DNA of 64,000 nt from Eledone cirrhosa. Lineage: Eukaryota. The stretch lies in contig OZ024742.1 of NCBI GenBank assembly GCA_964016885.1, positions 17,794,001 through 17,858,000 of the forward strand. The letters run 5' to 3'. The notes under the pieces were generated by a model. The model worked only from the letters and a program-made list of their open reading frames with translations. It had not been told where the DNA came from and made no database searches. Position numbers and translations under genes: made by a program. Of the stretch, positions 1,693 through 57,869 are shown piece by piece (position 1 is the first letter of the stretch; each line of letters starts with the position of its first letter).

Positions 1693-1755
1693 TTTTATCT
1701 GATGAGGACGTACTGTTGAAGATAGCTCAGTACCTCTGAAATATGTATAATAAAA
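1693..1755 (+). ncRNA. Type I hammerhead ribozyme (family A)
   Basis: Stem I TTTTAT/ATAAAA; core CTGATGA 1699-1705; stem II GGACGTACTG/CAGTACCTCT (one mismatch); GAAA 1738-1741; stem III ATATGTAT; predicted cleavage after A1749. Confidence 0.7.
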
Positions 1756-3214
1756 CATACTTGATCACACGAATGTCTATTTTTGTTAATATTTTGAATT
1801 AATATATATATATAAATATATATATATAAATATATATATATTATATATATATAGAAGTGGTTAGACAACAGTTAGTTCACCATACCGAGAACAATTGTTT
1901 CACCTTACGGATCCTCAACTCGTAATGGGCATGGTTATACGGAATGATTCTCGCATGTGCTTTCATAACCTGCAAGAGTCTGCCGACAGAAGAACAAAAA
2001 TCCGTTGAGAAAGCGATGCCTTGTTCGGTCTCTATACCAAAAGCTTATTTTTATAAGCAGACAGTATTATTGATTTAGGCGTTGCAGAAACCCACTTTCG
2101 GAGCATTCCATCTTCCAAGAAGGGTCCGGGTAAATATTTCAATCATATCTCATTTTGTTTGACCCGTTTTAGCTTGTTCGCTTCTTTGGCTATGGTGGTT
2201 AATGGCTTCTTAACCATCGTCTCAGCGTGTATGACCTTTTTAACTTATGTTTATAGCTCTGGTATCTTCTTCAGTTCCATCGAGCGCTTGTCAGCACAAT
2301 ATGGAAGTTGCGTTTCGCTAATTTCTACCCGCCGAAATGCGATTCTCGCTAAATTATATTTGTATATATATATATATATATTTATTTATTTATATATATT
2401 CCTTTACCCGACAAACACTGCTATAAAATATCTCTTCTCATCTTCTTTTCTTAGATCTAATCCATATCAACAACCTAAAACGTTATTTTATGACAAATGT
2501 GTTAGCTTAGGTAGTACTAGAGACATAATAACGACACTCAGGAGATGAATATATTAATAAAATAAATAAAAATTCGGTCTGAACTATGCTTTATATATGC
2601 AAATCGATTCCCCCAATTTACTTAAGGTGTATTAGTAATGTCTCCGTTGGTGGTTAAAGCGCTTACTGAGTCGCTTATGTAATCCAAAAACAGAATTGAA
2701 ACAAGATCAACTGATGTCTCTTTTTCTGTCTACGAATATATTGTGTATTTAAAGATAAATTACTTACACCTATCTATTATATAGAGTGTTGGCTAAAATC
2801 TACAACTATATATTCTGTAGTACAGTGTAATTATGAAACACAACATTTAATGAACCAAATTATTTGTTGTACAAGTAAGTACCAAGAACGCTTTACGGTT
2901 GGATAATATTCATGAGCTTGACTGGTCACGCTTGGGGATCTGCCGGATCAGTTGGGGACTTTTGCTTCTGACAGGACCCGCTGGAAGATGTGTTTGAGGA
3001 CTCTGCCCGCCGCCACCCTCTCAAGAAGAAGAAGAAGAAGAAGTTTTATAAGGTCGCTCTTTGGGCAGTTAAAGAGTGTACTCCAGTTGTTTTATTCTGT
3101 CAGCGAACATATATACAGTGACAAGACGTTTATATTTCTGTAGCATTCCTTTGGCTAAAATCTACTGTTGTATTACACACACACACACACACACACACAC
3201 ACACACACACATAC

Positions 3215-3412
3215 ATACAGATGCGAGAAAAGCCACAAACCCTCTATCTCAATTCTACTTTTGAAAAGCATAAGAACTGTGAAACCGGTGAAGGAAACAA
3301 ATAAATATTCTTAAAAAGACTCCAGTTGCATTTTCGAGTTCTTTTCATTATACTTTCACTCGTGTAGGGCATCTCGTTTTTCTTTTATCATTTTTAAAAA
3401 ACCTCATTTTCT
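3215..3412 (+). mobile_element. Diverged 3' fragment of the family-C non-autonomous element, with a degenerate U3-A8 HHR at 3257-3294
   Basis: Aligns with the reverse complement of 50897-51110. Retains TTGAAAA...GAAACCGGT, but the cleavage triplet is GTG. Lies between (CA)n and (TA)n tracts. Confidence 0.65.
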
Positions 3413-4767
3413 TATATATATATATATATATAACAGTAGATTTTTAGCGAAAGGAATGTAACAGAAAGGTATAGACGCCTAGTCACTGTATATATATATA
3501 TATATATATATATATATATATATATATATATATATATATATATATATATATATACGGGATAACAAATCATTGTTATAGGTAGTCCACTTGGATGTAGTCC
3601 AGTTAGGGTACTCCGAGTAGTGGATAATATCAACGCTTGGCTAAGTTTGACTCAACTAGGCGTTTCCATAGTGATGCTGCGTGTACGCGGTGATTTTATA
3701 TGTTGCTTACACTTGGAGTAATGATAAATCAAGAAAGAAGAGTGACATGCATGTTATTGATGATGTGAAAGCTAAACAACCCCATGATTCGAACTAACAA
3801 TCCCTTCATCTAATACATACCACTTAAATATTGAATCCGCTTTACACCACATAAAAATTACCATCCTCACTACAATGAAAATATTTTATCTGTCAGATAA
3901 TAAATAATTCTTACGGTCAGCAAACCTACGGTAAAGGAAATGGTACATTGTTTAAAGCCCCGGCTTATCTCTACACTATATATAATACACCTCATGAGAG
4001 CTTTTACATGTCAATTTCATACACCTGCCTCATATCAGCTCGTTTGACATGCTAAAGTCATAAGTATACTCTATGTCTTACTTAGATTGATGTTGTGATT
4101 ATTTCAACTAATTTATTGCTAGCATTGTTAGTACTGTTATTATTGTTCTGATTTAATGCCACTACTATATATAGAAGCCATGCCTGTGTATTCCCTTCAT
4201 TCTCGCAAGCTCTGATGGATTGACTGGTTACAACTATGTATTGGTGATCGATTGACGCAGAAACAGGCGGGTAGCGATCTCTAGACCTACCAGTTCAGAG
4301 AAACAATTGTCAGTAATGTAATTAAAGCCCTTATTGTATAGCAAACCGTGTCACTCTTCTTTCTTGATTTACATATATATATATATATATATATATATAA
4401 GGTCTTATGAGATTGTATATTCCTTTGAAATTCTACGGTAGAATTTATATATGCGGATGACAGATTATACTTCTTAATTACTTTGAATTTCCCATTAAAT
4501 TCAGATTCTGAATGGATGACTGAATCAACTTGTATAATACTAATCTCATCTGATGACGAATAGATTATTAAATATAACTTGTGCTTATCCCGTTGACAAT
4601 GAAACAATTCTGTAATCCATATAGTTTGTCATTCGTATAACGATTAAAGATTCCCACTAGATTTTGAAGCGAAGTACATACACCATGCATGTCTACATGG
4701 TTATTGGCTGTTTTTTATACATATAAATAAATAAGTAAATAAGTGTTGATATTCTCTCTCTTTCATT

Positions 4768-5077
4768 CACTGCCTCCGTCTCTCTAACTCTTCCCATCTC
4801 TCACTATTATACGTAAATGGGGGACTACGTGCTGGACACCCCACAGCATTGAAGGACAGAATAGAGAAGGCGTTTCGCGAGGCTCAAACCTGTGGGTAGC
4901 CAACTCTGTGCCTATGATGGTGGTGAGTAGGGAGGTGGCTCTAGCGCCGAGGACACTAGACGTCTCCACTGCAACGGGCTCGACCACAAACCTGTCGGAG
5001 AACGACCGATATTTGCAGAGTTTACCCTCCTCGACCAGAAGTGCAGCAGAGCCTGGATTAGTCGCACACTGCACCAT
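4768..5077 (-). pseudogene. Remnant of the C-terminal restriction-like endonuclease region of a CRE-type non-LTR retrotransposon
   Basis: Translation PGSAALLVEEGKLCKYRSFSDRFVVEPVAVETSSVLG...EPRE, plus (R)NAFSILS in an adjacent frame, fits the AG.AA..AE..K..KY...F.PVAVET.G...QRGNA motif series of CRE-like elements. Confidence 0.6.
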
Positions 5078-56152: not shown

Positions 56153-57099
56153 TATATATATATATATATATATATATATTTATTTATTTATTTATTTATA
56201 TATAAATATGTGTGTGTATATATATATATATATACACATATATTTATTTTTTTATATCCAATTGAGTTCTTCACGCATGGTTAAAATTCTTGACAGAATT
56301 AATTGACCTGCGTGCATATTATTTTATCCTTTAATGTTTTGCGATGACCTCCCCTTCCCGCTTGGTGACGGTGTGAGATTTCTCTTTGGAGACTGCTGGA
56401 ATTTCAAATTTGGCGGTCACTCTAACACTGACGGGTACCATCGCTGAATGTTAATATCGGTAGGGTTTTGTTTATATCGATATTGTTGGGCATCCACTGA
56501 TGATTTATAAGTGCCCACCTGCATATATTCCTATAGACTATGTGTAGGCTTCTACATAACCTGGACATTATTTTCCCAACTTGTAGAAAACTTATAATGA
56601 AACGATCGTTTGGAAAGAGGGATGTATTTAATTATGTCTCATATAAAATAATACAACTGGCTATCTGCAAAATACGTAGAGTTAGCACCCCAAACGTATA
56701 ATTGGGATTATACTAAGGTATATCCTAATGTTTGTTGAGTGAGATGGAAGTCGGTCGGAGTATTGATTAAAGCTTTCTCTGTTAATGTATTAAATATATA
56801 TATATATATATATATATATATATATATATATATATATATATATATATATATATATAGTGTAATGAATTAACCTTACGTTACTGTTGGTTCACTAGCTTGA
56901 GTACTCAATACACAGGTGGATCCATTTAAGTATAGTGCGCAGGGTTGTATATTAAAGCGGGATCTTCTGAAACTGTGAAATATTAATCTGTGAACACCGA
57001 TGTAAATATTTCAAAAAGATTACAAAATATTGCCTTATATATATATATATATATATATATATATATATATATATATATATATATATATATATATATATA

Positions 57100-57660
57100 T
57101 GGAGGGTTTATGATTTTTCTCGCATCTGGTTGGTGTTCGAATGTAACTTCTGTTTTATGTGGAAAAAATGAGTTGAAATGCTAGGTTTTTTAGAAAAGTA
57201 ATTTGGTTGGTTGATGACTGTCACATAAATAAATATAATAAATTTCGCGCCAGTTCGCGTTACAAAGTTCTTATTGTATATGCGTTTAAAGGGGGGGGGG
57301 GCTCAGATTGTTTTTTCATATATGCGTGAAATCTAGTTGGTTGATGCAGTCACGTGAATAAGCACATCAACTTTCTCACCAGTTCGTGTTTGAAGGTTCT
57401 TTATTGTCATTTTCACTTAAAAAAGTGGCTCAAAAATGTATATTTGATTGGTTATGACTGTCACGTGAATAAGTACATTAAATTTCGCGCCAGTTCGTAT
57501 TTGGAGGTTCTTTGTAGCCGTTTTCACAGTCACATGATTTGTCATAGAGTTTTGTGCCAAACAAAAAATAATGGTCAAGAAAAAAGGAATGTGTGTCGGA
57601 AAATAATTCTATTAGTAGAAATAGGGGAGGGAGTTATGTGTGTGTGTATGGGTGTTATAT
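57100..57660 (-). mobile_element. Diverged internal fragment of family C
   Basis: Shares CATCTGGTTGG and ATAAATTTCGCGCCAGTTCGCGTTACAA with 51080-51400, and ATTCTATTAGTAGA with the 51636-51649 spacer. Confidence 0.65.
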
Positions 57661-57810
57661 GTGTGTGTACGTATGTTGCTTCATATGACACTACTATGAC
57701 AACTTACACTTGGGTCTCCAATAGTCGTCGCTGAGCATATAAAAAAATCTAAATCACAGAAGTAAGCTTTATTCCATCGTTATATTTTTGTTTTTTCTGT
57801 TCAAATTCTA

Positions 57811-57869
57811 GCTGTCTGATGAGGTCACAACAGTTGTATAATGGTTATCACCGAAATATATATAATAGT
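57811..57869 (+). ncRNA. Type I hammerhead ribozyme (family G)
   Basis: Stem I GCTGT/ATAGT (two G-U pairs); CTGATGA 57816-57822; stem II closed by GGT/ACC; GAAA 57853-57856; stem III ATATATAT; cleavage after A57864. Confidence 0.62.

Follow-up and report, generated by a model that had tools for sequence, protein, structure and literature searches.

The window analysed here is a stretch of 64,000 nucleotides of the Eledone cirrhosa genome (GenBank assembly GCA_964016885.1, contig OZ024742.1, forward-strand positions 17,794,001 to 17,858,000), and its type I hammerhead ribozyme motifs fall into nine families (A-I), two of which, H and I, are present as damaged or half copies. As judged from sequence, five of the nine are the termini of coding Penelope-like elements (PLEs), three of the Hydra clade and two of Neptune/Nematis type, and D, E and G are non-coding tandem units of 311, ~475 and ~720 bp, probably copied by a Penelope enzyme that acts in trans. 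Family D, a 311-bp retrozyme, displays two fixed 3' ends, divergent arms, a TA target, uniform junctions and clonal arrays; behind this footprint we infer a ribozyme that cleaves, a monomer that is made circular, and PLE enzymes that prime on a single monomer sequence from each of the two DNA ends and copy it by the rolling-circle route.

Motifs were sought with a descriptor of the type I fold (core YUGANRA plus GAAA, both stem I and stem II, U16.1, and no G at H17), of which the strict version asked only A15.1-U16.1 of stem III and demanded no palindrome. This returned 18 matches in the window, 17 of them palindromic, where 100 block-wise dinucleotide shuffles averaged 0.62 (0.01 palindromic); with a long stem II permitted there were 20, every one palindromic (20/20), against a mean of 0.28 in 50 shuffles (0 palindromic over at least 6 nt). 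We regard the type I motifs as confirmed and their self-cleavage as predicted. An earlier, sequence-only reading of the window had staked itself on such an excess over shuffled sequence, and further proposed some 20 type I motifs in six families with a universally self-complementary stem III. Nineteen of its 20 motifs satisfy the descriptor, and one intact motif, of family G, brings the total back to 20; the failing motif, a degenerate family C hammerhead (3254-3295, plus strand, with a U3-A8 core at 3261), combines a G at position 17 with a disrupted stem II, and is predicted to be inactive. All six stem III sequences lie where, and as often as, it had placed them: ATATGTAT once in A (1741); ACGATCGT in three copies of B (cores 9460 minus, 16536 minus and 17254 plus); ACCGGT in three copies of C, each with a U3-A8 core (3261 plus, 51065 minus and 52190 plus); ACGCGT in nine copies of D; ACTAGT in three of E; and ATATATAT once in F (57856). 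Families G, H and I had been overlooked, and self-complementarity, which holds for all 20 matches with a long stem II permitted, breaks down in H, whose five damaged copies all fail the descriptor and carry the stem III AGAACT. What had been read as covariation across families is the palindromic helix III already published for animal type I hammerheads (PMC4209133). The minimal hammerhead, defined in the available text of that source by its lack of helix III, is not what the window holds: stem III spans 6-8 nt in every matching motif, resembling the palindromic-helix variants, and the family B motifs, previously described as minimal, have a stem II region of 115 nt and hence are not. Nor do the motifs sit in (TA)n, as had been suggested for most of them; they lie outside it, ~100-330 nt upstream of the element end that abuts it. 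A (TA)n tract occurs within 450 nt of 12 of the 20, the other eight being internal units. An Rfam scan of the window placed no hammerhead family among the best 150 of 173 matches, only microsatellite-driven microRNA matches.

Density elsewhere was sampled in 40 stretches of 10 kb, taken at round coordinates from the 11 largest contigs of the 3.0-Gb assembly. These 400 kb outside the window contain 43 descriptor matches (0-4 in 12 shuffles), or ~1 motif per 10 kb, belonging to at least 16 families as counted by eye; if this density holds genome-wide, extrapolation yields roughly 3 x 10^5 hammerheads. With pairs merged there are ~37 insertions, which predicts ~6 per 64 kb where the window has 7. 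The insertion density of the window is therefore ordinary for this genome, and its motif count is high only because D and E are arrays. A (TA)n tract lies within 450 nt downstream of 33 of the 43 sampled matches, against 32% of random positions, an enrichment that supports the shared TA target which, like the PLE link, had been proposed from the window alone; stem III is strictly self-complementary in only 18 of the 43, and so the palindrome is no genome-wide rule. Much of this recalls the hammerheads of metazoan PLE pseudo-long terminal repeats (pLTRs) as the accessible text of PMC4209133 describes them: many families in one genome, a palindrome at positions 15.2-16.2 and in loop 3, the U3-A8 variant, opposite-strand pairs 100-700 bp apart, and mostly truncated PLEs. 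The extrapolated total exceeds the up to 9,000 given there and the 126,247 reported for axolotl, a loose comparison as descriptors differ.

Family D occupies 52310-55033 as a 311-bp unit with a GC content of 0.35. A minus arm (52599-52310) terminates at the long end, unit position 290, and a plus arm of 7.8 units (52598-55033) at the short end, unit 250-259; together they carry nine hammerheads. In favour of copying in trans, D has no open reading frame (ORF) of 100 amino acids and shares no homology with the sequences of A, B, C, H and I, the five PLE families found, by which an autonomous partner might be recognised. The family has 12,828 exact cores (control 0), and its short end is joined to TA 1,144 times (control 27). 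Its statistics derive from the first 30 loci with a short end at TA in the first part of one contig, the exact short end being required, and comprise 23 simple two-armed loci, one compound locus (L202) and six with a single arm. The last seven were excluded from the statistics, as were the window copy and L013/14 (haplotypes only); junctions were read singly, and the statistics of automated junction mapping, confounded by an internal inverted repeat, were discarded. D arms are divergent and joined 5' to 5', and their outer ends are two fixed sites beside (TA)n, unit 250-259 and 285-292, 26-42 nt apart. The opposite arm ends at unit 285-292 beside a TA tract in all 23 two-armed loci, although this was not a selection criterion, such that 23 of the 30 loci combine the one-sided tail with two fixed 3' ends and the inverted 5'-truncated copy that mark a PLE-mobilised element. 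One short and one long end likewise delimit all five two-armed insertions that touch the window (A-E).

Arm lengths in D correlate (rho 0.53, p 0.01), and the long-end arm is the greater in 13 of 23 loci. As either arm may be longer, neither is a fold-back copy. We find it scarcely credible that the inverted repeats are DNA-level fold-backs or the ends of DNA transposons with incidental motifs, as might be suggested by perfect palindromes such as 50957-52299, given outer ends that differ by a fixed tail, motifs far above shuffled expectation, and arm-length data that already contradict the idea. The sequence-only reading had named as its own undoing the possibility that all families are truncated ends of autonomous PLEs. 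This came true for three of its six families (A, B and C); it also holds for H and I and is possible for F, which we leave unsettled between the coding and non-coding classes. Its extension to D, E and G is very improbable: the 5' neighbour of a D unit is another D unit at every multi-unit locus examined, E and G are likewise tandem or permuted, and no PLE protein match runs into a D arm at the loci examined, which were not a whole-genome screen for a rare autonomous parent. The supposed community of non-coding parasites shrinks to D, E and G, since PLE coding sequence adjoins families A, B, C, H and I.

The 46 inner junctions of D are distributed uniformly round the unit (Rayleigh p about 0.49), with none at 110-130, and 43 of the 46 arms, which reach up to ~27 units, cross the predicted cut site. 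In every one of the 16 loci that have a full unit per side, one haplotype extends across both arms, and eight of these haplotypes are unique among typed loci. Non-fixed variants are few: 225 units from 20 loci contain 18 single and five double variants, and a 2-bp deletion that marks one insertion of the compound locus. These data bear on a model, discussed as local amplification in bioRxiv 10.64898/2026.07.22.740005, in which a PLE inserts D monomers or dimers, slippage or unequal crossing-over lengthens the arrays later, and conversion acts between arms. The doubled variants of L201 and L202, which are long arrays, and large heterogeneous E arrays on one contig, would fit later growth; most D arrays, however, including one of 35 units, are fully uniform over both arms, arm lengths correlate while junction phase is random, and each arm would require more than one unit before expansion. 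We consider later growth improbable as the origin of the arrays.

For the origin of D we propose a sequence of steps. The D hammerhead would cut a multimeric transcript after unit position 119, aided perhaps by the palindromic stem III, which in published work on other animals lets motifs that adjoin in a multimer adopt a dimeric fold and cleave, and the resulting monomer would be ligated into a circle. The circular monomer has a predicted fold more stable than base-shuffled controls (z about -3.8). A PLE reverse transcriptase (RT)-endonuclease, probably a dimer, would cut both strands of (TA)n, and reverse transcription would be primed by each 3' end, on the same D monomer sequence, from one or other of two closely spaced internal start sites; both enzymes may then circle the template for a variable number of turns before the two cDNA ends are joined, so that the array would be born at insertion. 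That D arrays were copied from a ribozyme-made circle by a PLE enzyme at both ends of a (TA)n cut seems to us reasonably probable. The more exact statement, that a single ribozyme-made RNA circle of 311 nt is read both ways by a Penelope RT-endonuclease dimer working from a double-strand cut in (TA)n, with starts ~35 nt apart and up to ~27 turns per arm, we hold to be evenly poised between right and wrong. In contrast to D, short I and F copies stop at one place, as expected for cDNA made on linear templates. Their start sites may resemble initiator elements.

A linear template has also to be considered for D: PLE enzymes might work from both cut ends on a long, uncleaved transcript of a parent array, with neither circles nor ribozyme cutting. 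In the accessible parts of PMC11167929, hammerhead mutants left the in vitro insertion of a lizard PLE undiminished and uncleaved RNA was the main substrate, and identical arms and uniform junctions would equally be expected of a linear multimer whose parent array is homogeneous. Against this stand at least 11 haplotypes, every one of them fixed throughout its arrays while intermediate or periodic patterns are almost absent, for which repeated one-unit bottlenecks would be needed, and the expectation that 5' truncation could only shrink arrays, yet D arms reach ~27 units; we judge the linear template, the chief alternative to a circle, unlikely. Several further observations, together with those from PMC11167929, weigh against copying from a circle. 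The requirement for an exact short end means that the sampled loci are young copies. The second arm is missing in six of 30 D loci, and in family E an opposite long end was found at 17 of 30, with two exceptions or ambiguous cases and none within 1.5 kb at 11. The doubled variants of L201 and L202, one of them common to both arms though not at corresponding positions, reveal that a degree of duplication or conversion took place later. Finally, sequence comparison matched no PLE clade to D, E or G. No RNA dataset was listed for family D. A single 340-letter contig of D in three sequencing runs would fit a closed 310-nt cycle, and tandem DNA equally, and a fourth run with D resembles deep genomic DNA; none of these was used.

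If copying from a circle is correct, each retrozyme array would record one RNA molecule in clonal form, and a single reaction would account for pLTRs, tails, inverted copies and tandem arrays alike, amid ~3 x 10^5 hammerheads. Being young, abundant and short, family D lends itself readily to the in vitro PLE assay that already exists. The exact predictions that it offers are two sites of RT start, cleavage after unit 119 and a circle of 310-311 nt. The literature covered, as far as its accessible text goes, leaves open by what route PLEs produce tandem and inverted copies, and whether retrozymes move as PLE-read circles.

Neither the element classes nor the palindromic stem III is new, and PLE-dependent retrozymes are already in print. 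PLEs have been proposed as the mobilisers of retrozymes, and an RT as the maker of tandem cDNA from circles (PMC7229834); the available text of bioRxiv 10.64898/2026.07.22.740005 argues for PLE-dependent retrozymes, and suggests local array amplification. The animal non-LTR retrozymes of these two sources are, like D and E, short AT-rich non-coding tandem units, each with a canonical type I hammerhead. Cleavage and circles are demonstrated there, whereas D and E are known here from DNA alone, and have no homology to the pLTRs found here; the head-to-head arms, two fixed ends and inter-arm haplotype sharing of D are unreported in the accessible portions of either source. A two-armed clonal footprint for retrozymes was not found in the literature searched, beyond whose reach lay most subscription papers and the preprint supplements. 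The PLE tail is placed between two RT start sites, an arrangement termed unique to PLEs, with both DNA strands cut and extended, in PMC11167929. Poseidon of Anolis, assayed in vitro in that work, resembles D in its two internal RT starts defining the tail, extension of both strands, AT-rich target and predicted dimer, but belongs to a different clade, and its assays, in the text available, include no non-autonomous template, rolling circle or two-armed product.

Family E spans 50772-56153, with a minus arm of 55317-55086 that resumes at 50832-50772 (short end), a plus arm of ~55310-56153 (long end), and cores at 55270 minus, 55338 plus and 55813 plus. Its ~475-bp unit comprises 427 bp plus a variable internal TA tract, into which C and D have inserted, with an I stub adjoining, to form a nest of TA-targeting elements (50565-56153); E brings its own landing site for subsequent insertions. 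Unlike the uniform arrays of D, those of E at L113 and L114, on contig C14, are long and heterogeneous, have a higher-order structure and include an additional inserted segment. Both D and E have the attributes of non-LTR retrozymes, namely tandem units of 150-450 bp (311 in D; 427 plus the TA tract in E), a type I hammerhead per unit, no protein, GC below 45-50%, and no LTR architecture (primer-binding site and polypurine tract were not searched for). Their predicted folds show the canonical stem I internal loop and a short loop 2, which we take to agree with the tertiary-contact consensus. Only D-E stood out among 36 pairwise comparisons for a shared tail signal (4/300 shuffles), which is not significant after correction, though the two long ends can be aligned, and the folds showed no evident hairpin in common. 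Family G is a partial copy of a ~720-bp unit (56248-56793, plus strand; core 56497) with a 95-nt stem II region and stem III ACGATCGT, and its unit is circularly permuted at two loci. Family F (57733-58005, plus strand; core 57816) is a ~330-bp element with a fixed 5' start, most copies of which begin within ~14 nt of a single point; its copies are old (85-90% to other copies). F has no tandem partner at 24 loci, and neither a tandem nor an inverted partner in the window, so that the tandem or inverted geometry once ascribed to B, C, D and F stands for B, C and D, which are two-armed. D, E, F and G are all without homology to the compared PLE sequences of A, B, C, H and I.

PLE protein-coding sequence is contiguous with each of A, B, C, H and I. 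Family A (1-1801, plus strand) is the 3' region of a truncated Hydra-type PLE, with its hammerhead at 1693-1755 (core 1699, stem III 1741-1748) and its short 3' end at (TA)n from 1802; its inverted arm, with a GIY-YIG fragment and the long end, lies just left of the window, where Hydra-type endonuclease sequence is reached on both arms. Family B is a Hydra-clade PLE (9126-16591, minus strand) with pLTRs at 16591-16202 and 9515-9126, cores at 16536 and 9460, and a long 3' end at 9126 beside (TA)n. An inverted arm (16591-17451, plus strand; core 17254) meets it head to head at 16591 and runs to a short 3' end at (TA)n. The B ORF for RT and C-terminal GIY-YIG (13607-16049, minus strand) breaks frame near 13870, the final ~90 residues being in a different frame. 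The translations have RWR in place of RWK, DKT, a CxCx5C linker, CxxC and CxH, no CCHH and, at the C-terminus, GIY-YIG, and no Pfam match; with the pLTR hammerhead and (TA)n insertion they agree with the motif definition of the Hydra clade in PMC8557442. The available text of that work, whose supplement lists Hydra-1_Obim, also describes the inverted, 5'-truncated copy and one-sided tail shared by B, and related fragments occur in A and I. B differs by its 115-nt stem II region, its frameshifted ORF and a span of 7.5 kb with a long repeat-filled 3' region, as opposed to under 3 kb, and the tails here are 80-137 nt rather than 30-40. A repeat resembling a short interspersed nuclear element (SINE; 17066-17246), with a 19-bp duplication, interrupts stem I of the hammerhead on the inverted B arm (region 17047-17265). 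A similar doubled core occurs at L279, and the SINE-like repeat found in B also breaks one G site at two loci (L154 and L161), a hint of preferred targets.

The two-armed insertion of family C (50896-52295; long end 50896, short end ~52295, cores 51065 minus and 52190 plus) is the 3' end of a Neptune/Nematis-type PLE, of which C is the pLTR; the endonuclease lies within 1.5 kb at 13 of 30 other C loci, one of them near full length. C ORFs contain GxKF, DKG, RT, a Cx2-5CxxC linker and, at the C-terminus, GIY-YIG, match Pfam RVT_1 and GIY-YIG, and fit Neptune or Nematis alike. The ends of C fall at two fixed sites 65 nt apart (of 30, 19 were short and 10 long beside TA, and one was long and ran into an ORF), and the rule of one long and one short end holds in four of four other two-armed C loci. 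Family H is represented by an inverted pair at 58185-58852 (damaged hammerheads 58474 minus and 58577 plus) and, at 62023-64000, by a second inverted pair (62411 plus, 62308 minus) and a truncated PLE on the minus strand with an RT end, GIY-YIG (63445-63038) and a damaged core (62835 minus). Family I comprises about seven 3' halves in the window, from the pLTR of a third Hydra-type PLE whose ORF follows directly at one locus; the example at 61285-61425 (plus strand) retains a 5-bp stem III, and similar stubs lie near 7635-7789, 8918-9131, 21099-21350, 50547-50778, 58051-58166 and 59383-59559. Stop points could be parsed at 21 of 24 I loci, and 17 of the 21 end 10-22 nt short of GAAA. The full hammerhead survives at L213, L223, L226 and L233, with a 5-bp stem III, a palindromic loop, and a U3-A8 core in two and C3-A8 in two. 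Runs of A at I head-to-head junctions (L215 and L220) adjoin the common stop point, as if the RT had repeatedly copied a U-rich 5' end. Large nested inverted duplications at 58009-62909 (58279-59578 versus 62606-61271, 96%) are composed of H, I and other repeats.

The rest of the window includes a 22.8-kb satellite of ~31-bp GT-rich units (25953-48735) with no hammerhead matches inside, and a 288-amino-acid ORF (60090-60956) with no Pfam match, which we take to resemble the C-terminal part of an RTE-type long interspersed nuclear element (LINE). LINE-like RT ORFs, unrelated to the hammerheads, occur in both flanks of the window (L016, 1116-3292; L017, 5904-9240).

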